Source: Candidatus Methylomirabilota bacterium (GTDB lineage Archaea; Thermoproteota; Bathyarchaeia; 40CM-2-53-6). From it: a stretch of 64,000 bases of DNA. Location of the stretch: contig DATKOK010000147.1 in NCBI GenBank assembly GCA_035524675.1, positions 351 through 64,350 on the forward strand, written 5' to 3'. The position numbers and the translations under genes were made by a program. Of the stretch, positions 3,732-45,472 are shown in pieces (position 1 is the stretch's first letter; each line of letters starts with the position of its first letter). A model generated the notes under the pieces. It made no database searches and had not been told where the DNA came from. It was given only the letters and a program-made list of their open reading frames with translations.

Positions 3732-5852
<2,121 letters not shown>

Positions 5853-5855
5853 ATT

Positions 5856-5882
5856 TTCCGGACGTAGGTTTACCTACGGCTT
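5856..5882 (-). other. 27-nt in-frame cassette interrupting aEF-2 (AAG CCG TAG GTA AAC CTA CGT CCG GAA), containing a UAG and a 6-bp hairpin
   Basis: Removing it joins ...EQIR to NMGIIAHVDHGKTT collinearly. The hairpin CGUAGG-UAAA-CCUACG embeds the stop codon. Identical CCG codons flank the UAG-to-hairpin segment. Confidence 0.7.
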
Positions 5883-5945
5883 ACGGATTTGCTCCTTGTT
5901 CGCAATGATCTTCTGGATTTCAGCTGTGCTCTTGTAACGTGGCAT
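5883..5945 (-). CDS. fusA: aEF-2 N-terminal segment (MPRYKSTAEIQKIIANKEQIR), same frame as the main body
   Basis: An ATG at 5945 preceded by gagtgaaa opens a 21-codon stretch. It matches the conserved aEF-2 N-terminus in sequence (MPRYK...) and in spacing to the RN(I/M)GIIAH strand. Confidence 0.7.
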
Positions 5946-5992
5946 TTTCACTCAACTTTCCGCGAAATTGTGATGGCATCATAACTAGATCT

Positions 5993-6000
5993 CATTAAAG
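5993..6000 (-). promoter_or_regulatory. TATA-like box (cTTTAATga) about 50 nt upstream of the aEF-2 ATG at 5945
   Basis: AT-rich hexamer on the minus strand at the expected distance. It supports transcription starting upstream of the N-terminal segment. Confidence 0.3.
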
Positions 6001-6097
6001 TATTGCTGTTGAAGATCTTTGGGCAACAGGAATGCGAAGAAAGGAGAAAAAGGCAGGTATCTATCTAGCTTGCCTGCAGCTTCTGATCAGGTGTCGT

Positions 6098-7135
6098 ATG
6101 GAGTTGGGATTCAACCTTGCCCCCTTAGCGGTTAAACAACGTCTTACGCTGAACGATCTTTGGGGGAGAGTTCTTGCCGTTGACGCGAACAACATGCTTT
6201 ACCAGTTCTTGGCTCTGATTAGAATGCGTGACGGTAAGCCATTTACCGACGCTTCAGGGCATGTAACGTCACATTTGATAGGCCTCATCTTCAGGACAAC
6301 TCGATTACTCGCTGAACACAATATTCGACCGGTCTTCGTGTTCGATGGAAAACCACCAGCGCAGAAAATGTCGACTCTCAAAGAGCGGAATTTGACTCGA
6401 GCCAAGGCCCGAAGAGAATATGAACTCGCCGTCGGACGCGGTGACTATGCTGCTGCATGGTCAAAGGCCGTGCGCATGGACTCCTTGACTCAGGAGATGA
6501 CTGGAGATGCTAAGAGGGTACTATCGCTACTTGGCATACCCGTTGTGCAGGCGCCTCAAGAGGGTGAGGCGCAAGCGGCACACATGGCTCGACGTGAGGA
6601 TGTTTGGGCCGCCAACAGTCGCGATTATGATGCAGTACTATTCGGTGCGCCTCGATTAATCCGCTACCTGACGATAACGGGTCAAGAGTATTTGCCGAGT
6701 AGCGGAAATTCGAGGCCACTTATACCCGAACTAATAGACCTTCGGAAGATGCTAGCTGTATTGCAGATTACGCAGGAGCAACTTGTTGACTTGGCTGTAC
6801 TGGTTGGAACCGATTTCAATGCGGGTGTTCGAGGAGTCGGACCTAAGACTGCGTTGAAGTTGATTCAGAAACACAAAGCACTGGAGAACTTGCCGACAGG
6901 AATCAAGGGAAAATTACCGCAAAATGTTCAGGAAATTCGCACATTGTTTTTTCATCCACAGGTAACGAACGATTATGATCTGCGCTATTCAGCGGTTGAT
7001 GAAAAGGGGCTCGTTCAATTCCTTTGCGTTGAGCGAGGATTTGCAGTTGATACGGTCAACATTGTCATTGAGAGAATGCGCATCTTCAATGCTAGAGAGG
7101 CTTCGAACTTGAGCTCTTGGCTTAGTCCTAGATGA
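6098..7135 (+). CDS. fen: Flap endonuclease 1 (FEN-1)
   Basis: VLAVDANNMLYQFL, HLIGLIFRTTRLL and PVFVFDGKPP are XPG-N/I motifs. Start moved to ATG 6098 (MELGFNL...) to match FEN-1 N-termini. Confidence 0.9.
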   Translation: MELGFNLAPLAVKQRLTLNDLWGRVLAVDANNMLYQFLALIRMRDGKPFTDASGHVTSHLIGLIFRTTRLLAEHNIRPVFVFDGKPPAQKMSTLKERNLTRAKARREYELAVGRGDYAAAWSKAVRMDSLTQEMTGDAKRVLSLLGIPVVQAPQEGEAQAAHMARREDVWAANSRDYDAVLFGAPRLIRYLTITGQEYLPSSGNSRPLIPELIDLRKMLAVLQITQEQLVDLAVLVGTDFNAGVRGVGPKTALKLIQKHKALENLPTGIKGKLPQNVQEIRTLFFHPQVTNDYDLRYSAVDEKGLVQFLCVERGFAVDTVNIVIERMRIFNAREASNLSSWLSPR

Positions 7136-7139
7136 GATT

Positions 7140-8753
7140 ATGTCCCAGACTCATTTCTCCGAGTTCGCGAATGCATGTCGACGGATTGAAGCAACTAGTA
7201 AGAGGAAGGAGAAAGTTGAAGTCCTGGCAAACTTCTTGCGCTCCCTGCATCCTCATGAAGTGATTCCGGCTGTAACCTTCTTCACAGGACATGCTTTTCC
7301 AGGAGCGGACGAACGAGTGCTCGATATTGGTGGCCAGACTATCTGGAAGATGGATCGAAAGAGCAACCAATCAACGTTAGTTAGCCGACCAGCGACTCTA
7401 TTAGATGTTTACGAAACCTTCGATAGGGTCGCCAACGCCACTGGTTCAGGCTCCCGCCAGAGGAAGGAGACTCTTGTGGAAACACTCTTGGGACGTCTTG
7501 GAGCTTCCGACACCGAATACTTGCTGAGAATAATTTTTGGCGAGATGCGCATTGGTGCGGTAGAGGGTGTAATGCTCGATGCTATCGCGGCTGCTAGCGG
7601 CATTCAGCTAGATGATGTTAGGCGAGCGTACATGTTGCTGGGTGATCTCGGGCGTGTCGCAAAGTTATCGATGACTGAGGGCCATGCGGGGGTCCATGCG
7701 GTCCGTGTAGAAATATTCGTGCCGATAAGGCCAATGCTGGCTGAGATGGCGCAGGACGTTGAGGAAGTTTTCAGGGAGCACGGAGGAATCACAGCTCTCG
7801 AATACAAGTATGATGGGGCAAGAGTTCAACTCCATAGAAAAGGGGGAACCGTCAGAATTTTCAGTCGCAGACTCACAGACGTGACTGATAGCCTGCCGGA
7901 CGTTGTTAGGGTAGCTAAGGAAGAGATTGATGCTCGGGCGAGAGAGTTCCTCGTGGAAGGCGAAGTCGTGGCCGTGGGAGAAGGCGGAAAGCCATATCCG
8001 TTCCAGGACTTGATGAGGCGTTTCAAGCGCGTGCATGAGGTTAAAACGATGACGACGCAGATACCGCTTAGACTTCATTTGTTCGACATCGTGCATCTGG
8101 ACGGTAGGATGCTCATAGATGCGCCTAATGAAGAACGGTGGGAGATTCTCCAGAATCTCGTCCGGCCAGACTTACTAGCCACTCGAACCGTGAGTTCGAA
8201 AATAGGTGATGCTAAGGAGTTGTTGCAACAAGCGATTCTCGCGGGACATGAGGGAATAATGGCCAAGGATTTGAAGAGCAGTTACACGCCTGGCGTGCGC
8301 GGGAAGAAATGGTTCAAGATTAAACCCGTCGAGACGCTTGATGTCGTGATCGTAGCTGCAGACTGGGGATCTGGAAGGAGGGAGGGATGGTTGAGCAATT
8401 ACCATCTTTCAGTGCGAGACGCGCAAACAGGGGACTATTTGCTGGTGGGGAAGACGTTCAAGGGCCTGACTGATGAAGAGTTTTCGATGATCACTGAAAA
8501 GCTATTGTCATTAAGAATTCGGTCCACCGAGTACACTGTCTATGTTAAGCCTTCGATTGTTGTTGAAGTGGCGTTCAACGAGATTCAACGAAGTCCACAC
8601 TATCGGTCAAGGCTCGCTCTTCGTTTCGCTCGTATTACTCGTTTTCGAGAGGACAAACGCCCGGAGGATGCTGATACACTGAGTAAACTGAACGCTCTTT
8701 ACGAAAATCAGTTTAGGTTCAAGGCAAAGGCAGACTTCGAGGCTAACAGATGA
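7140..8753 (+). CDS. lig: ATP-dependent DNA ligase
   Basis: Adenylation motif I EYKYDGARVQLH, plus EGIMAKD and KWFKIKP motifs. 537 aa. Confidence 0.95.
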   Translation: MSQTHFSEFANACRRIEATSKRKEKVEVLANFLRSLHPHEVIPAVTFFTGHAFPGADERVLDIGGQTIWKMDRKSNQSTLVSRPATLLDVYETFDRVANATGSGSRQRKETLVETLLGRLGASDTEYLLRIIFGEMRIGAVEGVMLDAIAAASGIQLDDVRRAYMLLGDLGRVAKLSMTEGHAGVHAVRVEIFVPIRPMLAEMAQDVEEVFREHGGITALEYKYDGARVQLHRKGGTVRIFSRRLTDVTDSLPDVVRVAKEEIDARAREFLVEGEVVAVGEGGKPYPFQDLMRRFKRVHEVKTMTTQIPLRLHLFDIVHLDGRMLIDAPNEERWEILQNLVRPDLLATRTVSSKIGDAKELLQQAILAGHEGIMAKDLKSSYTPGVRGKKWFKIKPVETLDVVIVAADWGSGRREGWLSNYHLSVRDAQTGDYLLVGKTFKGLTDEEFSMITEKLLSLRIRSTEYTVYVKPSIVVEVAFNEIQRSPHYRSRLALRFARITRFREDKRPEDADTLSKLNALYENQFRFKAKADFEANR

Positions 8754-9451
8754 AGGTGGCTTCGTTATTCAGCGGAGGTAAGGACAGTGCTTTTGCCACT
8801 TGGTGGGCTCAAATGCAAGGTTGGGACGTAGCAGAATTAGTCACAGTTCTTCCTGAATCGACCGAGTCATGGATGTTTCATTATCCTGCAACAGAATGGA
8901 CCCGGCTGCAGGCCGATGCTATGGAGATTCCGCTGACCGTGATCAGAACCAAGGGGACTAAGGAGAAGGAGTTGGATGATCTTGCTGAGGGTCTTCGAGC
9001 AATAACAAAGAAGGCTGGATTAGAAGGCATTGTTTCTGGAGCTGTGGCAAGCGAATATCAGCGAACTCGATTGGATAATGTGTCCGAGGAGCTCGGTTTG
9101 AGAAGTTTTGCTCCATTATGGCATAAGAATCAGCAGCAGCTTGTGGAGGAACAGATCGAGTCGGGATTTGAGATCATGATGACTGCGTGTAATGCTCTGG
9201 GACTGAGTAAGGAATGGTTAGGGCGAAGGCTTGATATAACTAATTTTCCGGAACTCCTCCGGCTTAGTAAGAAGTACGGTTTCAGTATAGCATTCGAAGG
9301 TGGCGAGGCTGAAACATTCGTCCTGAATGGCCCGATGTTCAATGGCAAGATTAGAGTGGACCAGTCGATTCCGCATTGGAAGAACGAGTCAGGTTACTTG
9401 GAACTAGGACGATTGAGTCTAATACGCGAGGCAGTCACCTTACCAGCCTAG
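8750..9451 (+). CDS. PP-loop ATP pyrophosphatase, diphthine-ammonia ligase (Dph6/MJ0570)-like
   Basis: N-terminal SLFSGGKDS PP-loop, SGAVASEYQRTR and PLW motifs of the Diphthami_syn_2 family. 4-nt overlap with lig. Confidence 0.75.
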   Translation: MKVASLFSGGKDSAFATWWAQMQGWDVAELVTVLPESTESWMFHYPATEWTRLQADAMEIPLTVIRTKGTKEKELDDLAEGLRAITKKAGLEGIVSGAVASEYQRTRLDNVSEELGLRSFAPLWHKNQQQLVEEQIESGFEIMMTACNALGLSKEWLGRRLDITNFPELLRLSKKYGFSIAFEGGEAETFVLNGPMFNGKIRVDQSIPHWKNESGYLELGRLSLIREAVTLPA

Positions 9452-16383: not shown

Positions 16384-16590
16384 TCTAGACGCCTCGGGAC
16401 TTGAGAATCTGCGTAGCCTTAAGAAGGCAGCTAATTAAGAGTTGTTGAGTTCTGAAGAGGGGCGTCGATCTGGAAACGCAACTTGCCAAGTTTAGCTGAC
16501 CTAGCTTCCAGTCGTAGGGTGGTTCAAGTATCCGATTGGACCTCGTACCTTAATCTACTACCTAAGCAACATCATTGGAGAGGCTTCGGA

Positions 16591-17694
16591 ATGCCTGAGT
16601 TCGTGAAGAAGGGCATCGAGTTTGATGATGAAGCGCGTGTCGGAGCTGGTTACCTAACCTACGCAAATGCAAAAGTGCCGCTTCCAAACAAGTTTGCGAC
16701 TACAACAGAACTCAACGCGACTCGACTCGTCGGATTGAAGCAGGATTTTCCTACAGAGATCATCGTTGCGGGTAAACTGATCTACCCTGAAACCCTAAAG
16801 CGCATTTTGAAAGAGGAAGATGCTCTGAAGGAGTTTGCTCGTCGCCTTGCTCGCGAGACCTCTAGCCACGAAGATGCGTTGAGCATGCTATTCTTTATCC
16901 TGAAGGGAGAGGCAGCGGTAGCGGAGTCAAGTGACCTTAAGACCGTTCTTGATCTCCAGTACTTTGCAGATTTGGATATTATCACTGTGCAGCAGAGCCC
17001 TGGCCTGCCGATGGATGATTTCTTATCTCACATTAGGTTCGCTGAGAGGTGGCTTGATAATCGAGGTATAGACAAGCCTCTGATGCCTGTGTTAGCTCCA
17101 TCGGATGACGATTTTGAGAAGACATTGAAGGCAGTTGTGAAACGGAAACCCAAGTTGCTAGGGTTTGACATGAGAGGCGGGTTCTACTATCAAGCGCTAC
17201 GATCCTTGGAAGTTGTCAAGGATAAAGATCCGGAGATCTGGCTGCACGTATTTCAGGTCCCTCCAAAGGTCAGGTTCGCCAGAAGCCTGTTAAGATGTTC
17301 GGAGGGAATGGTATTGCCATTCTTCGGTGTAGATAGCTACAACAGGTGGGTTGTGCCCCCGCCCCCTGTGCCTTTAACGAAAGACAAGATCAACATGTTC
17401 GATTCCACGAATTGGGGAGTGTTCAAGCGCAAGGAATGGGACAAGGAATATGGTGCAAAGCTGAGTTGCACTTGTCCGATGTGTAACAAGCATCAGCTAC
17501 CAACCTTCTTTTCTGGTGAAGTGCTAACAGTATTGGGAAGGAGCAAAGTTCATGACCATTATGCTCAACGGGAGCAGCTCTATGAGCTCGCAAAACGCGT
17601 AAAGTCAGGTAAGGTTAAGGGCTTCATCTCCAGAAAGCGGTATCCGAACGCATTCCTTAAGCAAGTATCAGATTCCGAACCGTCTAAAGCTTGA
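16591..17694 (+). CDS. Divergent TGT-fold (tRNA-guanine transglycosylase / DpdA-like) protein, function unknown
   Basis: C-terminal CTCPMCNKH...(about 25 aa)...VHDH fits the TGT zinc motif CxCxxC...H. FFGVDSYNR sits where TGT has G(V/I)DMFDC. Start taken as ATG 16591 after ggagagg. Confidence 0.45.
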   Translation: MPEFVKKGIEFDDEARVGAGYLTYANAKVPLPNKFATTTELNATRLVGLKQDFPTEIIVAGKLIYPETLKRILKEEDALKEFARRLARETSSHEDALSMLFFILKGEAAVAESSDLKTVLDLQYFADLDIITVQQSPGLPMDDFLSHIRFAERWLDNRGIDKPLMPVLAPSDDDFEKTLKAVVKRKPKLLGFDMRGGFYYQALRSLEVVKDKDPEIWLHVFQVPPKVRFARSLLRCSEGMVLPFFGVDSYNRWVVPPPPVPLTKDKINMFDSTNWGVFKRKEWDKEYGAKLSCTCPMCNKHQLPTFFSGEVLTVLGRSKVHDHYAQREQLYELAKRVKSGKVKGFISRKRYPNAFLKQVSDSEPSKA

Positions 17695-18271
17695 CTTCCG
17701 CCATTCGCGTCATTAGCGTTTTCAAATCAATTTCAGATTGGGTTCGCCATCCGAGAGATATTACGCCAGCGTCATCTTCTTCGAGGTAGCCCGTCCTCAG
17801 GAAAATGTCCACTAGGGTTATCGATTTCCATCTACCGAATTTGTTGGCTAGGAGTTTCTCGAGATCTTCTCGAGGAGCTTTTCCCTGCTTTGAGAGAAGG
17901 AACGCGACCACAGCAGCTAGTGCAGCAAGGTTGTCGATCCGCCATCCGATCATCTTTGCCTCTTTTAGGCCGAGTGTTCCTTTGAGTGTTATGTAATACC
18001 TACTCTCGTCAGTCGGTACTTCGTTCTGCGTAGCGTATGCAGGAGTGTGCTCCTTGACCTTTTTTATTTCAAGGTCAAGTTCGGAGAGGAGTTGATTGAG
18101 CTGCTCAAGGACTTGTTCATAGTTCTTACCTATTTTCTCCTTGAACTCCCATTCCTTCGCCCCAGGCATCTTTCCTCTGCGAAAGAGCAGTAGATGCATT
18201 GCTCGCTTCAGCTTGTCAGAGTAGAATGTTTGAGTTTGGGGTTGTGTTTGTGTTGTCTCTTTGCTTTCCAC
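17684..18271 (-). CDS. Tandem winged-helix (KITE) protein, Nse3/MAGE- or ScpB-like
   Basis: 195 aa. AMHLLLFRRGKMPGAKEWEFKEKIG and LAALAAVVAFLLSKQGKAPREDLEKLL...FLRTGYLEE follow the two-WH MAGE/KITE pattern. Last gene of the SMC-like operon. Confidence 0.55.
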   Translation of the reverse strand: MESKETTQTQPQTQTFYSDKLKRAMHLLLFRRGKMPGAKEWEFKEKIGKNYEQVLEQLNQLLSELDLEIKKVKEHTPAYATQNEVPTDESRYYITLKGTLGLKEAKMIGWRIDNLAALAAVVAFLLSKQGKAPREDLEKLLANKFGRWKSITLVDIFLRTGYLEEDDAGVISLGWRTQSEIDLKTLMTRMAEVKL

Positions 18272-18274
18272 TGC

Positions 18275-19060
18275 TCAACTACTCCTCGGGACGGGGATCG
18301 GGAAGGAAATGCTGTTCGCCGTTGCTTTCCCGGTTGGCTCGTCGACCGGGATAAGTGATAGTTTGCCGTCATCCGTCTTTAGTTTAGCGAAGCCATAGGT
18401 GATGAGGAAGCTGATGAGGTAAGCTCTGTGCACAGTCTCTTGATATGTAGGCCTGCGAACAAACGTCCAATAATCTGTAACCTTCGAGCTCTCACAGGCG
18501 ATGCGAAGTTCTTCATGCAGGCGGTTGATTTGCGTGTTGAATTCTTCTCCGTGTACGCCCAGTCCTGTGAGCATTTCATTGTTAATTGGTGAAGGTGGCT
18601 TTCCTTCATTGGATTGTTTCTTCTTCCATCTCTCAGCAATTGGCAGGAGAGTGTCCCAGTAGTTGAGTGCATTGGTTACGGTTTCTTCTGTTAACTGTTC
18701 TAATTCTGCTAGGGGGTGCCAGCTCTGAAGGAGGACTTCGACAAGCCGCTTTTCACTCATTCGTTCCAGTTTTCGAACTATGAATTCGGGGTCAGCATAG
18801 AGGGCGCTAGATTGGAACTTCAGTTGTGTATTCTGGAGCCGTACAACTTCGGATAGGCGGTTAAGCGTGTGCGCGTCCATGCAATGGTCTTGAAATGTTT
18901 CCCATAGAGGAAAGAATTGTCGAAGAGTCTCTACGCCCAGTTTCACGTCAAGGAAGAACGGGTTGAATTTCCTTTCAGCTATGGCGTCACAAGTGTCGAC
19001 GAGTTCCTTTAACTCGCGTCTCCCTGCGGCTAGGGTGGGTTTCTTTGGGCTTTCACTCAC
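18275..19060 (-). CDS. Kleisin-like protein (ScpA/Nse4-like)
   Basis: 261 aa. N-terminal KFNPFFLDV resembles ScpA F-x-GP-LDLL. C-terminal VHRAYLISFLITYGFAKLKTDDGKLSLIP resembles the kleisin C-terminal winged helix (FLAxLEL...). 8-nt overlap with the SMC-like gene. Confidence 0.5.
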   Translation of the reverse strand: MSESPKKPTLAAGRRELKELVDTCDAIAERKFNPFFLDVKLGVETLRQFFPLWETFQDHCMDAHTLNRLSEVVRLQNTQLKFQSSALYADPEFIVRKLERMSEKRLVEVLLQSWHPLAELEQLTEETVTNALNYWDTLLPIAERWKKKQSNEGKPPSPINNEMLTGLGVHGEEFNTQINRLHEELRIACESSKVTDYWTFVRRPTYQETVHRAYLISFLITYGFAKLKTDDGKLSLIPVDEPTGKATANSISFPIPVPRSS

Positions 19061-20978
19061 CTGGAGTCAACTCGCTTACTACTGAGGCGCCTTCGACGTT
19101 TTGGACCACTATTACGTGGCTGTTGTCTGAGACGTTGACCTGTCCAGGTGTAATTGCGACATATTGGCCTTCCTTCATTGCCTTCGAGCTTGAGATGATC
19201 AGTTGGGTTACGAGTTCCCTATTCTTTGGATCCATGTGCACGTCAAACTCATCTATGGCTCGAAACGGGGAGGTTATGTGTTGCTGGAGGGCGAGGAGGA
19301 ACCCCATCATGGCGATGCTTCTTTCTCCGCCGCTCTGTGTGAATGCGTCCAGAGGAGTTGGTTTATTCCCTTTGAAACCAACGAGGATTTCGATGCCGCA
19401 CTTTTCTATATCTCGCGAGGATATTAGCCTTATAGCGCCTGTTGCGCCGACGCTAGTTAGAATCTCGTTATACCTGCCTGTTGATCCTTCAAGGAAACTG
19501 GTTAGGACGTCGCGCCAACGTGCGAGACGTTTGTCGAGTTCAGATAGCACTTCTTGGCGGCTAGTGGCGACCTGGTCAGCCTTCTGGCGCAGTTCCTCGT
19601 ATACCTTGGCGTAGGAAGAGTACACTTTCTCCACATCTTCACTGATGCTTGAAAGTGGGCGTATCTGCTCCTCTACAGCCCCCACTTCCAGCATTACGTC
19701 AACGATCTTCCTGAGGACTTCGGGGGCTGGTCCTGATTGTTCGGCCTGCGCAAGCATGGGGTCTACCTCTTCTCGTGCGAGCCTAACTTGCGCCTGCAGG
19801 TCCGCTACTTCTTCGGAAAGAAGTTTCTTCTTGAATCCTGAGACTTCATATTCGACGTTTGTGTCGATGAGGCGGGTAAGTGCGTCTTCCAGGCGACCGC
19901 TCGCATCTCCCATTTTGTCGCTGAGGGAACCCATTTTCTCTTTGGCTTTTGCCAGATTCTTCTGTGATTGCTCGACAGTCGCTGTCCACGACTGGCGTAG
20001 TTTGTCGAGACTCTCAGACTGCGTGGTACTTGCGTTTGCTGGGTCCGGAGGTAGAAAGTCTCGGAGTAGGTTCGTTGCCCATTCTAAATTGACTTCATTG
20101 GTCGTGGCTTCCTTTACAACTTCAATCCTCTTTCCTTCCAGTTCGATTCTTCCCAGGTTGAGCTCGTCGAACTTGGCCTGGCGTTTTTTCTTCATTTCTG
20201 CGAGTTCTTGTATCTTGCTTTCGATTGATTGTAGTGTACGCGATTTTGAATCGATACGATCCTGTAAATGTGACAGGGCTTCCTTCCGCTTCTGAATTCG
20301 AGCCCAGAGTAACTCGCGTTTCAATGTGTCTAGCTTCGTTTCCAGTTGTCTCTTCTGCAGAAACCTATCGTATTCCCGTTTCCAGTAATCATGTGTCTCC
20401 TTTGTTGATTCGAGTACTTGAGCCAAGGATTGCTCTTCGCTTGCAACGCTTTCTAATCGACGCTTTGCATCTAGAACATCTTCTCTGTAGGATTGGAACC
20501 CAACTGCTTCTTCGAGCATCTTGAGTTTATCTTGAGCACTGACAGCCGCAAATCTTCCCACCATGAACTGATGCATGATGACCAGGATATTGTCAGGGTT
20601 CAGCCCCAGAGTGCCGAAGACATCCGTTACGGAAGATTTTGGAACTGATTTGTTTTGTAGAAGATAGTAATACGTTCCGTTATGCTTCAGTACTCGCGTG
20701 AGCGCAACCGTGTCGGTGTGAAAGTGAGTGAATGGACGTTTCTCACCGGAATTGTCTAGGATCAATGTTATCCTCGCTTCTTCTGTTCCCCACTTTATGA
20801 GATCGCTTAACCTCTTGGATCTCTCAGTGTATGCTTGACCTAACACAACTGATATGGCCAACAGAATGGATGATTTTCCTGCGCCGTTGGGTCCGCAAAT
20901 GAGGTTCAGCCCAGGCTCCAGGGGAATGTATGCGTTCTCGTATGACATGAAATTTGTGAGAACTACACCCTTTATCAT
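19053..20978 (-). CDS. Short (641 aa) hingeless SMC-family ATPase with Smc5/Smc6-type head motifs
   Basis: N-terminus VVLTNFMSYENAYIPLEPGLNLICGPNGAGKSSILLAISVVLG (Walker A), about 350 aa of coiled coil, and C-terminus QSGGERSIAMMGFLLALQQHITSPFRAIDEFDVHMDPKNRE...QYVAITP (signature, Walker B, D-loop). Confidence 0.8.
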   Translation of the reverse strand: MIKGVVLTNFMSYENAYIPLEPGLNLICGPNGAGKSSILLAISVVLGQAYTERSKRLSDLIKWGTEEARITLILDNSGEKRPFTHFHTDTVALTRVLKHNGTYYYLLQNKSVPKSSVTDVFGTLGLNPDNILVIMHQFMVGRFAAVSAQDKLKMLEEAVGFQSYREDVLDAKRRLESVASEEQSLAQVLESTKETHDYWKREYDRFLQKRQLETKLDTLKRELLWARIQKRKEALSHLQDRIDSKSRTLQSIESKIQELAEMKKKRQAKFDELNLGRIELEGKRIEVVKEATTNEVNLEWATNLLRDFLPPDPANASTTQSESLDKLRQSWTATVEQSQKNLAKAKEKMGSLSDKMGDASGRLEDALTRLIDTNVEYEVSGFKKKLLSEEVADLQAQVRLAREEVDPMLAQAEQSGPAPEVLRKIVDVMLEVGAVEEQIRPLSSISEDVEKVYSSYAKVYEELRQKADQVATSRQEVLSELDKRLARWRDVLTSFLEGSTGRYNEILTSVGATGAIRLISSRDIEKCGIEILVGFKGNKPTPLDAFTQSGGERSIAMMGFLLALQQHITSPFRAIDEFDVHMDPKNRELVTQLIISSSKAMKEGQYVAITPGQVNVSDNSHVIVVQNVEGASVVSELTPGE

Positions 20979-21420: not shown

Positions 21421-22377
21421 GTGTCCGAAGATTTAGACTCTGAAGCAAGCGAAGCACTTCAATCGCAAAGCAAGATTCGCGTCTGCCCCGAGTGCGGCGG
21501 ACCCAAGCTAATGAGGGACTACGAGGCGGCGGAAATTGTATGCATGGCATGCGGATTCGTGATCGATGAGAAACTGGCCGACGCTAGACCAGAATGGCGA
21601 GCGTTCGATGATGAGCAGAAATCCAAGCGGACACGCGTTGGAGCGCCCTTGACTTATACTATACACGACAAAGGTCTATCGACGGTAATAGATTGGCGTG
21701 ATCGGCGTGCTTTAGGAAAACGAGCCACTGCAACTCAGAGACTAGATCTGTATAAGCTTAGAAAGTGGCAGAGTCGCGTCAGAGTTTCAGATGCGACTGA
21801 AAGAAACCTAGCAGTCGCCTTGGCTGAACTAAGTAAGTTGGCCTCCGCCCTCAACCTGCCGAAGAACATCCTGGAAACCGCGTCGGTGATTTACCGTCGC
21901 GCGATAAAGAAGCGGCTGATTCGCGGAAGATCTATTCATAATGTTACGGCAGCCGCGATTTACATGAGCTGTCGACAGTGCGGTGTTCCAAGAACATTGG
22001 ATGAGATCGCTGGATCTTCGAGCCTCAACAAGAAGGATATCGGCAGGAGCTACCGCTTTATGGTCAGGGAGTTAGAGGCGTTCGTCCCTCCTTCCACTAG
22101 CCGGAACTACGCTGCACGTTTTAGCAATAAATTGGTGATCTCGGGTAAGGCTGAAGCTATTGCAATAAAGATCTTAGAGATTGCAAAGCAGATGAAATTG
22201 ACAAGCGGAAGAGGTCCAACAGGCATCGCCGCGGCAGCAACCTACATCGCTACCGTCCTGACGAATGAGAGGAAGACTCAGAGAGAGATTGCAGAGATTG
22301 CGAACGTGACTGAAGTTACCATCAGAAATAGGTACAAAGAGCTTCTGGAACGACTCTTCATCGAAGTACCCGTCTAG
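21421..22377 (+). CDS. tfb: Transcription initiation factor IIB (TFB)
   Basis: Zn ribbon CPECGG...CMACG followed by two cyclin-fold repeats. GTG start, TAG stop. Confidence 0.95.
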   Translation: MSEDLDSEASEALQSQSKIRVCPECGGPKLMRDYEAAEIVCMACGFVIDEKLADARPEWRAFDDEQKSKRTRVGAPLTYTIHDKGLSTVIDWRDRRALGKRATATQRLDLYKLRKWQSRVRVSDATERNLAVALAELSKLASALNLPKNILETASVIYRRAIKKRLIRGRSIHNVTAAAIYMSCRQCGVPRTLDEIAGSSSLNKKDIGRSYRFMVRELEAFVPPSTSRNYAARFSNKLVISGKAEAIAIKILEIAKQMKLTSGRGPTGIAAAATYIATVLTNERKTQREIAEIANVTEVTIRNRYKELLERLFIEVPV

Positions 22378-36208: not shown

Positions 36209-36634
36209 ATGGGCATGTACAAGTACGCAAATCAGACGTGGAATACTAGAGAGAAGAATGAATTCGAGAAATATCTCCGCCAACTCATGATCAAATGGAG
36301 AAGGGAGCCTACTGTTCACAGAATTGAATCTCCCACAAGATTGGACCGTGCGCGAGCGTTAGGTTACAAAGCTAAGCAGGGGTACGTCGTTGTTCGCGTC
36401 CGTATACGTAAGGGTGGCGCTAGGAAGCCGCGCCCGAGGTCTGGAAGGCGTCCACGGGCACTCGGTGTTGTACGCTTCACACGTGCCATTAGCCTCAAGC
36501 ATATTGCTGAGATGCGAGCGCAGAAGAAGTTCCCGAATCTACATGTGATGAACACTTACTATGTCTGGGAAGATGGAACCCACCGCTGGTTCGAAACCAT
36601 ACTCTGCGATCAGACCCTAGGCAAGTTTCGTTAA
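36209..36634 (+). CDS. rpl15e: 50S ribosomal protein L15e (eL15), short form
   Basis: MGMYKY...LMIKWRREPTVHRIESPTRLDRARALGYKAKQGYVVVRVRIRKGG. Ends right after ...WFETIL, with no room downstream for the usual C-terminal tail. Confidence 0.88.
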   Translation: MGMYKYANQTWNTREKNEFEKYLRQLMIKWRREPTVHRIESPTRLDRARALGYKAKQGYVVVRVRIRKGGARKPRPRSGRRPRALGVVRFTRAISLKHIAEMRAQKKFPNLHVMNTYYVWEDGTHRWFETILCDQTLGKFR

Positions 36635-36640
36635 TTGTAA

Positions 36641-37453
36641 GTGGAAACTCAGAGTTTGATCAAGCCGCTGGTTGTCATCAAACTGGGCGGAGCGGCACTC
36701 ACTGACAAGAAGAGGATTTACACTCCAAGGATGACTGTTATTAGGTCAGTAGCTCGACAATTGGCCGGAATTAGATCTCGATTTTCCCTTGTTATTGTTC
36801 ACGGGGCGGGGAGTTATGGGCATATACCAGTTAGCCAGTTCAAACTCTCGCACGGGTTCCGGAATGATCAGCAACTAACGGGCTTAAGCGAGACGAAGTC
36901 TCGACTTTTGGAGTGGGAGTTGATTCTGACCGATATTTTCGTGCAGTTCAATATTCCGGTAATCCCGATTACGGCGAGTGATTATGTGATCGCGCGACGC
37001 GGCAGGATCGATACGTGTAACATGACCCCCATTAAGGAATGGATGCGGCTGGGATGTGTTCCGTCAACGGGAGGCGATATCGTCGCTGATGTGTCGTCTG
37101 GTTTCTCTATTGTGTCTGGGGATCAGCTGGCGGTCCACATTGCAATGTCGCTACATGCCTCTAAGTTGATCTTTGGGACTGATGTTGACGGTATCTTTGA
37201 ATCCGATCCGATCGGGAATAAAGCGGCGCGATTGTTGCGTGTCGTGCAAGTAAGAAAGGCCAAGCAAATTTCTGCCGGCGTAGCCACTGGCATTACTGAT
37301 GTTACGGGTGGAATGAAGGGAAAGATTGAGGAGGCTTCTAGGGCGGCAGAAGCGGGAATTTCAGTCATCTTCGTGAATTTGGTTAAAGGAAATCGGTTGC
37401 ACGATATAGTGTTGGGCCGCAGATCTGTTATTTGCACAGAACTTGTCGACTGA
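36641..37453 (+). CDS. Isopentenyl phosphate kinase (amino-acid-kinase fold)
   Basis: VVIKLGGAALTDKK and IVHGAGSYGH. GTG start. Confidence 0.8.
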   Translation: METQSLIKPLVVIKLGGAALTDKKRIYTPRMTVIRSVARQLAGIRSRFSLVIVHGAGSYGHIPVSQFKLSHGFRNDQQLTGLSETKSRLLEWELILTDIFVQFNIPVIPITASDYVIARRGRIDTCNMTPIKEWMRLGCVPSTGGDIVADVSSGFSIVSGDQLAVHIAMSLHASKLIFGTDVDGIFESDPIGNKAARLLRVVQVRKAKQISAGVATGITDVTGGMKGKIEEASRAAEAGISVIFVNLVKGNRLHDIVLGRRSVICTELVD

Positions 37454-37819
37454 TCATAGGAGCGGGAGATTTCCCGTGATTTTGTCTACGAGCTCAACGG
37501 GAGCTGGCCCGATTCCTACGCATGTAGCGGTTCCGGGTAAGATCTGTGTTAATCCACTATCGTGAATGATTGCTGAGGGCAGTCCAAGCTCTTTCGCCTC
37601 CTCGTTCAGCTTGTTGAGATCACTCTCACTTGTCACCTTGACTGCTACTTTGCACTGGCCTTCATCAAACCATCTTTGCCACCAATCCGGATGAGCCCGT
37701 TTTGTCTCTTCGGCGGCGGTGATGACGGCATGACCCACCTGTACTGCTATCTTGCCTTTGCCCATGTCAAGGTCTCTCCTTACGGCGACCACGAGCTTAT
37801 ACCTGAATTCTCGCGTCAA
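37454..37819 (-). CDS. pth2: Peptidyl-tRNA hydrolase Pth2
   Basis: YKLVVAVRRDLDMGKGKIAVQVGHA...GLPSAIIHDSGLTQILPGTATCVGIGP. Start set at TTG 37819, because the longer ORF overlaps the conserved divergent gene. Confidence 0.85.
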   Translation of the reverse strand: MTREFRYKLVVAVRRDLDMGKGKIAVQVGHAVITAAEETKRAHPDWWQRWFDEGQCKVAVKVTSESDLNKLNEEAKELGLPSAIIHDSGLTQILPGTATCVGIGPAPVELVDKITGNLPLL

Positions 37820-37870
37820 CGATACCGAACCTATTTTGCTTGCCAGATAGCAATAGGCATCTGATATAGG

Positions 37871-38302
37871 TTGAGACAGGAACCGATTCAATCTGTCGAG
37901 CTTAGCACAATTGCTCACGCGACAGAAGACCCTAGCAAAGTCGACAAGGCGCTGCAAACCTTGTTGCTGGGCATTCACCAACAATTCACTCGTCAATACC
38001 TGGAAGGTCATTATGGGAATCCGATCGTAAAGATTGAGGCAAAGCTCACGGATGAGAGCGCGGGACACTTTGCCCACTTGTTGGGCAGTAAGCTATCCAA
38101 GAGTGAACGACTCGTACTTCTGAGAGATCTTCACTTGCATTCAGATGATGATGGTAACCTTTTCGTCCGAGTGGACAAGCAGAAATTGCTCCAAGAAGTA
38201 TTTCGGATTGCCGAGGATGATCCGATTCGAGTTAAGATCAAGTTCAATCGTCTGATAGGTGATTGTAAAAAATCTATGATGGTATTTTTGGAGTCGGACT
38301 GA
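37871..38302 (+). CDS. Predicted RNA-binding protein of the exosome/RNase P superoperon (COG1325/DUF54-like)
   Basis: VELSTIAHATEDPSKVDKAL... pattern and conserved position upstream of rpp30. TTG start. Confidence 0.6.
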   Translation: MRQEPIQSVELSTIAHATEDPSKVDKALQTLLLGIHQQFTRQYLEGHYGNPIVKIEAKLTDESAGHFAHLLGSKLSKSERLVLLRDLHLHSDDDGNLFVRVDKQKLLQEVFRIAEDDPIRVKIKFNRLIGDCKKSMMVFLESD

Positions 38303-41067: not shown

Positions 41068-41928
41068 CTAGGGCGCTGATTGCGTCGAGTTCGTCACGAT
41101 AACCGTTGTATTATAAGCAGCAGGCGCAGACGAGATCTGGGTGATAGTTGTCTCTGCCACTGTTGTAGTTGTAGTTTGGGTTATCGTGCTGTTAGCCACC
41201 GTGCCAGTCACAAGGACAGTGACTGATTGGTTATTGAGTCGAGTAAGGGTTATCGTCGTGTTGTTCTGCCCGGGCAAGGCGTAGGATACAGTAGTGCTGT
41301 TAGAAGGGTTTAGTGTTGCATTTTCGGTAGTTGTCTCGGTTTGAGATGTGAAGTTTCCACTCGATGATGAGGGGTGTTCGTACTTCGTAACGGTAGTAGA
41401 GTTCATACCGACATTAGTGCTCGTTACATTCTGGCTCAACCCGACAATTAGTCCTGACCCGATCGACCGATTCATGGTCATGGTTCCTGAAAGCGCCAGG
41501 TACGCAATCGATGATAACCTGCTCGGGGGGGCGTCAACAGTCACCGTACTATTGTTCTGGATTAAGCCATGAAGAACAAGCTCCCCGGCACTAGATCTGC
41601 CATAGAGCGCAAACTCGCCCAACCGGTTGGATGAACCGCTACCGTCGGAGACCGTATAATTAACGGAAACAATTTGAAGTCGCCCCGTCAAGTTGCCTAA
41701 TACCGATCCGCCTTCTCCATCACCACGTATCCCCCCGATCAAATCCAGAGTTGCCGCACCTAGCGAACCGAGAGTAGCATTTAGTGAAGTGGCCTGACCA
41801 GTTAAATGAAAAATGACAGTCCCAACCTGACTCTGAATCTGCTCAGCAATCGCAGGGGATAACGAAAGTGCAGAGACTGCAAGGAGGACCATGACAATTA
41901 CATATCGATCTGACCGTTTTCTTGCCAT
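41068..41928 (-). CDS. Secreted or membrane-anchored Ser/Thr-rich protein with very dense N-glycosylation sequons
   Basis: MARKRSDRYVIVMVLLAVSALSLSPAIA signal/anchor, followed by about 16 N-x-S/T sequons. Start taken at the internal ATG 41928. Confidence 0.6.
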   Translation of the reverse strand: MARKRSDRYVIVMVLLAVSALSLSPAIAEQIQSQVGTVIFHLTGQATSLNATLGSLGAATLDLIGGIRGDGEGGSVLGNLTGRLQIVSVNYTVSDGSGSSNRLGEFALYGRSSAGELVLHGLIQNNSTVTVDAPPSRLSSIAYLALSGTMTMNRSIGSGLIVGLSQNVTSTNVGMNSTTVTKYEHPSSSSGNFTSQTETTTENATLNPSNSTTVSYALPGQNNTTITLTRLNNQSVTVLVTGTVANSTITQTTTTTVAETTITQISSAPAAYNTTVIVTNSTQSAP

Positions 41929-42247
41929 GTACTTTCTGGACCGCAGATTCAAGTATTCTAGTATATCAACGTTCGCACAACGAGACATTCGCGTTCCGAG
42001 GTTATGTCAGCAAGTAAGGAACCGTCCATATGTTCTTTCGGACCCCGATTCTAAGTACTAAAGACACGTCGATATTCCATTCCGACTATGGTTCAGCCTG
42101 GTCCATTTGCGCCCTCACGTTCTAGGCCACGCAATGTCATAGTTATCGCGCCGAGTTGACGCGCAACTTGGACAGAGGCTAAAGAGTCGTCTTTCTTGGA
42201 GCATCAAAGTATAATTAGCAGCCTTCTTTGTTCTGACCAACTTCGAG

Positions 42248-44534: not shown

Positions 44535-44948
44535 ATGGGCAGAACCTACAAGATGGGCCCTTCGGGAAGCTTCGGAGCAAGATATGGAACCGTCGTAAGA
44601 AAACGATACTCAACCATCATCACCGGCATGAGAACCCCGCACGAATGTCCTCAATGTCACTTGATCGCCGTAAAGCGCATGTCCGTTGGCATATGGCTCT
44701 GCAAAAGTTGCGGGCTCAAGTTTGCAGGGGGCGCGTACTCTCCGCGAACAAAGCTGGGTGAGATCGCAGAGCGAGCTTCGAGGGCCGGAGTAGCTTCTAG
44801 CCAACTCGCTGAACTCAAAGCTGAGAAAGCTCGAAAAGCCGAAGTCGAGGCAAAAGCCAAGGCCCCAGCAAAACGAAGACGTCGCAAAGCCGCGACCAAA
44901 ACCGAGCCTAAAGATGCTGCAGAAGCTACTGAGGAAAAGCCTGCGTGA
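44535..44948 (+). CDS. rpl37ae: 50S ribosomal protein L37Ae (eL43) with a C-terminal extension of about 50 aa rich in K/A/E
   Basis: GARYGTVVRKRY...CPQC...WLCKSCGLKFAGGAY core, then AELKAEKARKAEVEAKAKAPAKRRRRKAATKTEPKDAAEATEEKPA. Confidence 0.9.
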   Translation: MGRTYKMGPSGSFGARYGTVVRKRYSTIITGMRTPHECPQCHLIAVKRMSVGIWLCKSCGLKFAGGAYSPRTKLGEIAERASRAGVASSQLAELKAEKARKAEVEAKAKAPAKRRRRKAATKTEPKDAAEATEEKPA

Positions 44949-45472
44949 TAGGCTTAACGACGGGACGAGAAACTAATCAGCGACTGAACAGCCTAATCAA
45001 GGAGCTCGGCAGTTCCATTCCAAATTCGAGGATAACGCGGCGAGGAAAATCAGGCAAAGAAGAACTGGCCAGAAGACTGCTTCAAGACGGATTCGCGCAT
45101 GCCCTTATCGTATACAGATGGCACGGAGGGCCAGGTCGCCTGGACTTCTTCAATGTGAAAGCATCAGGTATGGAGCACGTTCCTCCGTCTGCACTATTGA
45201 AATCGGTGATCCTACGCAGAGATTTCGGTGACCAGACTCCCCACAAGATTGCTGCCATAACCTGCGAGCATGCGTCCAAAACAACTCGGCACCTGGGCCA
45301 AGTTCTGTCTAGTGTCCTCGAACTCCCCCTCGTGGAATCACAATTAGATTTGCCATGTTGCCTGCACCTTCGTGATAACGGAAAAATGACAGAAGTTGTT
45401 GTCAGGTCACCACTCAATACGCGCGACATAGGCCCGAAGCTTGCAATATCAAAGCTGATATGGAGTGTGTAA
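44945..45472 (+). CDS. Brix-domain ribosome biogenesis protein (Imp4-like)
   Basis: 175 aa with the LIKELGSSIPNS...RRGK...ALIVYRWHGGPGRLDFFNV pattern. Conserved position after rpl37ae. Confidence 0.75.
   Translation: MIGLTTGRETNQRLNSLIKELGSSIPNSRITRRGKSGKEELARRLLQDGFAHALIVYRWHGGPGRLDFFNVKASGMEHVPPSALLKSVILRRDFGDQTPHKIAAITCEHASKTTRHLGQVLSSVLELPLVESQLDLPCCLHLRDNGKMTEVVVRSPLNTRDIGPKLAISKLIWSV

Follow-up and report, generated by a model that had tools for sequence, protein, structure and literature searches.

To our knowledge, cbf5 of the Crenarchaeota has for more than 20 years been the only accepted case of an intron inside an archaeal protein-coding sequence, and the intron of this pseudouridine synthase gene was reportedly described by Watanabe in 2002. 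Up to 2025, reviews and papers name besides it one 5′-UTR case in Haloferax only. The present analysis deals with the gene for the translation elongation factor EF-2 on the minus strand of a 64,000-nt stretch of DNA from a Bathyarchaeia genome (contig DATKOK010000147.1; in the following, the window means this whole stretch). The gene is interrupted by 27 nt, which are very probably an intron of the bulge-helix-bulge (BHB) type that would be spliced from the EF-2 pre-mRNA by the endonuclease EndA and the ligase RtcB. If spliced, EF-2 would be the second gene family known with a BHB intron in the coding region in Archaea, after cbf5.

The cbf5 pre-mRNA intron of Crenarchaeota is bounded by a BHB motif, has a length of 16-44 bp which is often not a multiple of three, lies beside a catalytic residue, shows a patchy distribution with secondary losses, and has often been mis-annotated and confused with frameshifting (PMC2738675). 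In the BHB of pre-tRNAs, the 4-bp strand on the exon side precedes the 5′ bulge, and splicing takes place after the second bulge base (PMC4090602). The HVO_1309 mRNA of Haloferax volcanii carries a BHB intron in its 5′ untranslated region (5′-UTR), which is a substrate of EndA and has to be removed for efficient expression; besides this case, the same 2020 study names cbf5 as the only reported BHB intron in archaeal mRNA (PMC7714728). A 2025 structural paper cites only cbf5 work for pre-mRNA, and a dedicated study of archaeal EF-2 evolution, which included Bathyarchaeota, does not mention an interruption of the gene (PMC6143161). A full-text literature search yielded no report of an EF-2 intron; its coverage was thin for subscription journals, and a prior mention is possible.

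The interrupted EF-2 gene and its predicted BHB intron

Translation of the minus strand from ATG 5945 yields MPRYKSTAEIQKIIANKEQIR-KP-stop-VNLRPE-NMGIIAHVDHGKTT, i.e. 21 codons (MPRYKSTAEIQKIIANKEQIR) are followed by a 27-nt hairpin with an in-frame UAG and then by NMGIIAHVDHGKTT. The gene opens with ATG(5945) CCA CGT TAC AAG ... CAA ATC, the junction reads CGT AAG CCG TAG GTA AAC CTA CGT CCG GAA AAT ATG GGA ATC ATC GCC CAC, and the side of the phosphate-binding loop (P-loop) continues with ... GTC GAT CAC GGA AAG ACG ACG. All EF-2 Pfam domains were found in the open reading frame (ORF) 3732..5852 (706 aa), and its product is 100% identical to catalogued Bathyarchaeia EF-2 proteins. The initial annotation had described an EF-2 gene in which a 27-nt hairpin cassette with a stop codon separates two conserved segments exactly where they join, and had stated that deletion of these 27 nt gives a collinear EF-2; both statements are confirmed by the sequence. 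The protein spliced in silico has 728 aa and is collinear with uninterrupted EF-2 proteins of 728-730 aa from related lineages, e.g. P0053. An AA repeat makes three ways of writing the deleted block equivalent (5882..5856, 5881..5855 and 5880..5854), and the block 5882..5856 chosen at first is the predicted intron 5881..5855 moved by one base within this repeat. The hairpin of 6 bp with a tetraloop (CGUAGG-UAAA-CCUACG) that had been noticed there is the centroid fold of the region. Its energy alone is unremarkable; the minimum free energy (MFE) fold of 61 nt gives the hairpin only (z = -1.0). The signal above chance lies in the conserved, covarying structure around the hairpin.

This structure comprises a central helix H, an inner helix h′ and an outer helix h (Table 1). 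The tetranucleotide UCCG directly before the insert is complementary to CGGA near the 3′ end of the insert, so that the layout from 5′ to 3′ is UCCG, a UAA bulge, GCCGUAGG-UAAA-CCUACGUC, CGGA and an AAA bulge, flanked by a weak outer helix CAAA/UAUG. A 70-nt MFE fold computed from the window sequence alone already includes helix H, a bulge and the inner helix. The BHB motif has a twofold symmetry, which was the basis for applying the same cut position to both bulges. Cleavage was placed after the second nucleotide of each bulge, with the geometry taken from the BHB of pre-tRNAs (PMC4090602). This rule removes exactly 27 nt from the window sequence and gives ...QIR-NMGIIAH.

In order to compare the locus with its relatives, one genome per GTDB species was scanned, which yielded 80 EF-2 loci. 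Of these, 40 are uninterrupted, with a distance of 78 nt between the start codon and the AH of the P-loop. In 35 loci and the window an insert interrupts the Asn codon following ...Q-I-R at the identical place, behind its first base, and two further loci, L005 and L076, also carry the insert (37 genomes besides the window). The analysed set consisted of 36 genes, namely that of the window and those of 35 species-level genomes of Bathyarchaeia and deep-branching Nitrososphaeria. Twelve insert lengths occur (27, 28, 29, 30, 31, 32, 36, 37, 42, 44, 45 and 63 nt), and 25 of the 36 inserts are not multiples of three. The comparison of related EF-2 loci, which the initial annotation had proposed, thus found the cassette conserved in the same codon phase in 35 other genomes.

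For the analysis of base pairing, columns were taken at fixed offsets from the protein-defined exon junction, with no fitting to structure. In all 36 genes helix H is paired at 4 of 4 positions, two 3-nt bulges lie on opposite strands and an inner helix adjoins them, and the BHB cleavage rule, applied in silico, restores the frame ...IR-N-x-G-(I/V)-(I/V)-AH throughout, at all 12 lengths. By a neutral pair count, 90.9% of the cells are paired, compared to 25-51% after a shift of the 3′ partners by 1-3 columns. Double compensatory changes were found at 7 of 11 pairs (48 cells), and the observed covariation score was matched by none of 500 shuffles. Within helix H, where 100% of the cells are paired, pair 1 is U-A or U-G, while pair 2 changes from C-G in Bathyarchaeia to U-A in Nitrososphaeria (21 and 8 distinct sequences, respectively). 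The inner helix h′ is paired in 85.7% of the cells, with compensatory changes at 6 of 7 pairs and up to five different Watson-Crick or wobble types per pair. The same helix H, a 3-nt bulge and helix h′ were returned by RNAalifold when run on the full variable-length segments with no structure supplied. Moreover, the Arg-21 codon is CGA or CGT in every intron-bearing gene, whereas AGR (AGG, AGA) or AAG is used in 15 of the 40 uninterrupted genes, and the Ile-20 codon AUA is found in none of the 36 intron-bearing versus 8 of the 40 uninterrupted genes. Judged from this codon usage, helix H visibly constrains the exon codons for Ile-20 and Arg-21.

The ratio of nonsynonymous to synonymous differences (pN/pS) of exon 1 (codons 2-21) is 0.31 at a pS of 0.67 across the 36 intron-bearing genes, and the 60 nt upstream of their start codons have an identity of 0.32, which is the random level. 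These values indicate that exon 1 is under purifying selection and bear out the earlier argument that an intact exon 1 speaks against simple decay. The sole conserved block in an upstream alignment of 19 intron-bearing relatives is AAAGTATAAAAG / AATGCTTTAATGA at the position of the TATA-like box of the window. The archaeal promoter consensus is the basis on which functions are assigned to TATA boxes and B recognition elements (BRE), and by this consensus the box would be the promoter of the EF-2 transcript. At the position of the Shine-Dalgarno (SD)-like element of the window, relatives have GGAG or GGAGGAGGA. EF-2 and the divergent gene fen1 are separated by an intergenic region of ~150 nt (5946..6097); the fen1 ORF 6032..7135 probably starts at ATG 6098, with the XPG_N profile aligning only from residue 36, and the region 5946..6097 should therefore hold both promoters.

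A stop codon in the frame of exon 1 is present in all 36 introns, compared to 10 and 13 introns for the other two frames. In 31 introns it is located 6 nt past the Arg-21 codon (UAG in 27, UGA in 4), and it persists despite the turnover of the surrounding helix sequence. We interpret this pattern as probable selection for rapid termination on unspliced RNA, which would explain why the hairpin embeds a UAG, as had been observed in the initial annotation.

Table 1. Features of the EF-2 locus in the window (window coordinates; a slash within a sequence marks a predicted splice site)
Feature	Position	Strand	Remarks
TATA-like box (CTTTAATG)	5993..6000	-	A-rich BRE-like stretch 5′ of the box; ~50 nt upstream of ATG 5945
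SD-like purine-rich element GAGTGA	5947..5952	-	just upstream of ATG 5945; putative function
Exon 1 of aEF-2	5882..5945	-	ATG 5945, 21 codons (MPRYKSTAEIQKIIANKEQIR), first base (A) of the Asn-22 codon
5′ strand (CAAA) of weak outer helix h	5888..5891	-	pairs with UAUG 5853..5850 at 3 of 4 positions
Exon-side strand (UCCG) of central 4-bp helix H	5884..5887	-	Ile-20 and Arg-21 codons; pairs with 5860..5857
5′ bulge (U A/A)	5881..5883	-	predicted 5′ splice site between 5882 and 5881; 3-nt bulge in 36/36 genes
Predicted intron, 27 nt, AGCCGUAGGUAAACCUACGUCCGGAAA	5855..5881	-	removal would give ...CGU A/AU AUG GGA = ...QIR N M G IIAHVDHGKTT
5′ strand of inner helix h′ (GCCGUAGG)	5873..5880	-	holds the in-frame UAG 5876..5874; pairs with 5868..5861
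Tetraloop UAAA	5869..5872	-	loop sequence and length differ among species
3′ strand of inner helix h′ (CCUACGUC)	5861..5868	-	pairs with 5880..5873
Intron-side strand (CGGA) of helix H	5857..5860	-	pairs with 5887..5884
3′ bulge (A A/A)	5854..5856	-	predicted 3′ splice site between 5855 and 5854
Exon 2 of aEF-2	3732..5854	-	last two bases of the Asn-22 codon, then MGIIAHVDHGKTT ..., stop TAA 3734..3732

In the pathway that we propose, transcription would begin behind the conserved TATA box and give a transcript of exon 1 (64 nt coding), intron and exon 2. Pairing between exon 1 (UCCG) and the 3′-terminal part of the intron (CGGA) would form the canonical 4-bp helix with two 3-nt bulges, h′ and a weak h. 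EndA, expected to be of the broad-specificity (alpha-beta)2 type of TACK archaea, would cut after the second base of each bulge, and the ligase RtcB would join the exons and probably circularise the intron. The predicted junction in the spliced RNA is ...AAAUCCGUA/AUAUGGGA..., also written ...GAGCAAAUCCGUA/AUAUGGGAAUCAUC..., and the mature mRNA would encode a normal EF-2 of 728 aa, ...KEQIR-NMGIIAHVDHGKTT..., for which the peptide EQIRNMGIIAHVDHGK and, preceded by EQIR, the tryptic peptide NMGIIAHVDHGK are predicted. On unspliced RNA, ribosomes would stop after 23 codons at the in-frame stop, so that an aberrant or frame-shifted EF-2 would not be made. RNA-level excision as in cbf5, which the initial annotation had listed as one of its alternatives, is supported by the BHB motif, the covariation and the restoration of the frame.

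Several observations weigh against splicing of this RNA. In the window, h′ (8 positions) has one C-U mismatch beside its first pair, and the outer helix h, which is expected to close the 3′ bulge, is weak (3 of 4 pairs). In most Bathyarchaeia helix h is weak or irregular, with alternating pairs only, and RNAalifold does not predict it; it is better in Nitrososphaeria, with 3 consecutive pairs (A-U, G-U, A-U). Because of the weakness of helix h in the window and in most Bathyarchaeia, the 3′ site is read as a relaxed BHB. Archaeal BHB motifs are said to occur in a canonical form, hBHBh′, and in the relaxed forms HBh′ and hBH, as distinguished by Marck and Grosjean in 2003. An (alpha-beta)2 EndA with a specificity-broadening loop is documented in Thaumarchaeota, Crenarchaeota and Aigarchaeota of the TACK superphylum, and a weak outer helix would be compatible with the relaxed motifs cut by this enzyme (PMC5829648). 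The presence of an (alpha-beta)2 EndA in Bathyarchaeia is an extrapolation from these groups.

To the same side belong the searches for spliced products and splicing enzymes. A degenerate pattern of the spliced junction, run against JGI metagenome contigs, found no spliced copies, as its 13 matches are all naturally uninterrupted and represent distant EF-2 genes (~64% identity). A query of the protein catalogue with 70 N-terminal aa gave no spliced-type protein of the intron clade, the match P0224 belonging to the uninterrupted L010/P0053 lineage, and the exact in-silico spliced proteins of the window, L001, Ca. Nitrosocaldus and HR04 are absent from the catalogue of 15 billion proteins. Likewise, the members of ten truncated EF-2 clusters include no protein of 728 aa. 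The catalogue negatives show that no public annotation has joined the EF-2 exons, and the missing spliced copies probably reflect the make-up of the collections, which may lack metatranscriptomes. Additionally, neither endA nor rtcB was found by Pfam annotation of 56 ORFs of the 64-kb window, nor was cbf5. Both endA and rtcB are presumably present in this genome.

The whole 64 kb yielded no tRNA gene (ARAGORN) and no Rfam match at the gathering threshold, and thus offered no tRNA introns of the organism for a comparison. When the window was scanned naively for a minimal BHB (4-bp helix, 3-nt bulges, inner stem of at least 4 bp), 1709 and 1358 matches were obtained on the two strands compared to ~1600 in shuffled sequence, and the EF-2 element itself was missed due to the C-U mismatch in h′. 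An ORF-fusion filter on these matches left 218 uninformative candidates, which are no evidence for or against further split genes in the window.

Alternative explanations of the insert

Programmed translational bypassing was favoured in the initial annotation. According to this explanation, ribosomes would take off at CCG (5879..5877) with UAG (5876..5874) in the A site, slide across the hairpin and land at CCG (5861..5859), giving a product ...EQIRKPENMGIIAH with the hop peptide KPENMGIIAHVDHGK. The coordinates of the two CCG codons and of the stop hold, and the layout of matched CCG codons, a stop after the take-off site and a hairpin is present in the window and in its closest relative, L001. 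The stop at its fixed distance from Arg-21 in 31 of 36 inserts and the hairpin in all of them would also fit, but they are equally explained by the BHB inner helix together with selection for early termination. Only 4 of the 36 genes (window, L001, L016 and L039) have, in frame and within the insert, a landing codon that matches the take-off codon; elsewhere the take-off codons differ among species (ACG, GCG, AUC, GUA, GGG ...) and have no partner. Neither the two 3-nt bulges nor the covariation of a helix that joins exon 1 to the 3′ end of the insert is expected under bypassing, and the hop would insert the three residues K-P-E at a site, four residues ahead of the P-loop strand, at which uninterrupted EF-2 proteins have no additional residues. 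With the codon match confined to 4 of 36 genes and the exon-insert helix covarying, bypassing is discarded for the family as a whole, and for the window it is very unlikely.

It is also very improbable that an N-terminally truncated EF-2 (MGIIAH...) is initiated at ATG 5852, with the upstream 21 codons and the hairpin representing a relic or a short upstream ORF. The ORF 3732..5852 does begin with ATG, and every gene caller chose ATG 5852 or a later start. However, the ATG of 5852 is shared by only 6 of the 36 genes (window, L001-L004 and L009), and 26 of them have no ATG, GTG or TTG upstream of the P-loop in the frame of exon 2, so that initiation at this Met, as considered in the initial annotation, fails for the family. 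Proteins called with 693/694 aa start after GKTT and would lack the G1 motif. Moreover, exon 1 is under purifying selection at saturating synonymous divergence and lies directly behind the conserved promoter, and no SD-like element is evident just upstream of ATG 5852 (CCGGAAAAU).

Readthrough or recoding of the UAG, by which the 27 nt would be translated as an insertion of 9 residues, has in its favour that the insert of the window is a multiple of three with a single stop. For the family this alternative of the initial annotation fails, since most homologous inserts (25 of 36) do not have such a length, their stops are UAG or UGA at varying positions, with several stops in some inserts, e.g. 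that of L042, and base pairing is conserved while the amino-acid sequence of the insert is not. In the window UAG is an ordinary stop, as had been noted before, and terminates 14 of 52 Pfam-supported ORFs, tfb (21421..22377) and dph6 (8750..9451) among them. Readthrough is considered extremely improbable.

The bare fact of an interrupted essential gene is all that speaks for an artefact of sequencing or assembly, or for a pseudogene decaying in this single genome. Both are hardly conceivable, because the same element is present in 35 other species-representative genomes (37 if L005 and L076 are counted) and in numerous independent contigs from JGI, ENA, NCBI and Logan, all listed members of ten protein clusters from independent assemblies are miscalled and none has a full-length N-terminus, both exons are under purifying selection, and there is no second EF-2 ORF among the window ORFs of at least 130 aa.

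Distribution, gene annotation and window context

The distribution of the predicted intron was read on a neighbour-joining tree of EF-2 proteins, a quick distance tree on which the number of losses is only indicative. Two groups carry the intron: most Bathyarchaeia related to the window, including metagenome-assembled genomes from soil and peat, and deep-branching Nitrososphaeria, namely Ca. Nitrosocaldus L042, archaeon HR04 L039, L040, L041, L049, L050, L052, L057, L071 and L080. The homologous insert in the EF-2 gene of Ca. Nitrosocaldus has 42-63 nt. Nested among the intron bearers are uninterrupted lineages: L010 (next to L011 and L025), L014 and L017, L029-L036 together with L077, the Methylarchaceae L034 and L045 (neighbours of L052 and L057), and all Nitrososphaeraceae. 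Identity of site and phase, together with homology of the central helix, speaks for a single old gain followed by several precise losses. After loss of the intron the Arg codon is free to drift, as illustrated by the uninterrupted L010, which has AGG. The 12 length variants and the several precise losses make the locus a clean system for studying intron gain and loss. Some Bathyarchaeia EF-2 proteins additionally contain an intein in the P-loop (AHVDHGK/C...), i.e. those of L005 (~40-230), L026 and L085 and the proteins P0124, P0174, P0215 and P0216. In L005 a 29-nt BHB intron is followed by the intein only 12 codons further on, and RNA and protein splicing would therefore be needed within ~40 nt of coding sequence.

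EF-2 is widely used as a phylogenetic marker. None of the EF-2 calls checked for the intron clade (P0001-P0120, P0076, P0083) has the correct N-terminus: the miscalled proteins have either 706/707 aa and start from an internal Met or 693/694 aa and start after GKTT, with a loss of 22-35 residues, and P0076 and P0083 have spurious N-termini from out-of-frame translation of exon 1 and intron. Callers start after GKTT or invent N-termini because 26 of the 36 genes have no upstream start in the frame of exon 2. Gene finders need a BHB-aware step.

The neighbourhood of EF-2 in the window is an ordinary one for information processing, with fen1, DNA ligase, dph6, IleRS, CysRS, TFB, an exosome operon, aIF2-gamma, aIF5B and ribosomal proteins. 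The ORF 36209..36634 (+) for ribosomal protein L15e encodes 141 aa only and matches positions 1-137 of the 191 positions of the Pfam profile. The next gene, for an amino-acid kinase, begins at 36641 and leaves no space for the C-terminal third that is missing, and the protein is either a lineage-typical short form or something odd. In ribosomal protein L37ae (44535..44948, +) the Pfam match covers residues 3-83 and is followed by a Lys/Ala/Glu-rich C-terminal tail of ~50 residues (...AEKARKAEVEAKAKAPAKRRRRKAATKTEPKDAAEATEEKPA). The ORF 37454..38077 (-) for the peptidyl-tRNA hydrolase PTH2 has an N-terminal extension of 92 residues before the Pfam domain (residues 93-207), which probably reflects a GTG start set too far upstream in the mechanical ORF list. 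No Pfam match was obtained for five ORFs of 175-403 aa within 16483..19060, 41068..41988 and 44945..45472; three of them, 16483..17694 (+), 17684..18271 (-) and 18275..19060 (-), adjoin an SMC/Rad50-like ATPase (19053..20978).

Comparison with known systems

T4 gene 60 and the mitochondrial byp elements of Magnusiomyces resemble the locus in the window superficially, by the stop after the take-off site, the hairpin, the matched codons and the length of the gap. Unlike in these systems, matched codons are limited to 4 of 36 EF-2 genes and conservation lies in the BHB fold including exon sequence. The EF-2 element is not a member of this family and probably functions in another way.

HAC1 and XBP1 represent eukaryotic cytoplasmic unconventional splicing, in which Ire1 and Trl1 or RtcB act as a regulated stress switch. 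The predicted EF-2 intron would share with them a small, structure-defined mRNA intron, removal by a protein endonuclease and a tRNA-type ligase, and an unspliced mRNA that gives no functional protein. The HAC1/XBP1 system differs in that Ire1 is the endonuclease, the motif is a twin stem-loop and splicing is regulated, whereas no regulation has been shown for the EF-2 intron. Archaeal ribosomes can load on nascent transcripts. With the intron located only 64 nt behind the start codon, the question arises how splicing would be coordinated with coupled transcription and translation. It may be speculated, with a rather low probability, that the intron is ancient and obligatory, predates the split of Bathyarchaeia and Nitrososphaeria and has been kept in order to couple EF-2 synthesis to the tRNA-splicing capacity of EndA and RtcB, with the stop codon as a fail-safe where translation starts on nascent transcripts, which would make it an archaeal counterpart of regulated splicing of the HAC1/XBP1 type.

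BHB introns of pre-tRNA and rRNA have in common with the EF-2 element the 4-bp helix, two opposite 3-nt bulges, splicing after the second bulge nucleotide, an inner helix of free sequence, recognition by structure instead of sequence and the expected action of EndA and RtcB. They differ from it in that the EF-2 substrate would be an mRNA, one strand of helix H is constrained by codons (Ile-Arg) and the outer helix is weak. The HVO_1309 intron is euryarchaeal, located in an untranslated leader and validated in vivo and in vitro, whereas the EF-2 intron interrupts the coding sequence.

The closest likeness is to cbf5. Both are short BHB introns in coding sequences of TACK archaea (16-44 bp in cbf5, 27-63 nt in EF-2), often with lengths that are not multiples of three, and both lie next to an essential catalytic motif, have a patchy distribution with secondary losses and were missed by annotation. 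In contrast to cbf5, the host gene EF-2 encodes a translation GTPase, the bearers are Bathyarchaeia and deep-branching Nitrososphaeria, including mesophilic organisms of soil and peat, and the intron is located 64 nt into the ORF and has, 6 nt beyond the Arg-21 codon, an in-frame stop that is strongly conserved. For cbf5 there is experimental proof of splicing, whereas we infer splicing of EF-2 from comparative sequence data. The EF-2 element would work like the cbf5 intron and is not homologous to it by position, as the latter interrupts the codon of the catalytic Asp. With an essential and universal translation factor in two large, environmentally abundant lineages as its substrate, mRNA splicing by protein enzymes in Archaea would be no curiosity of one gene.

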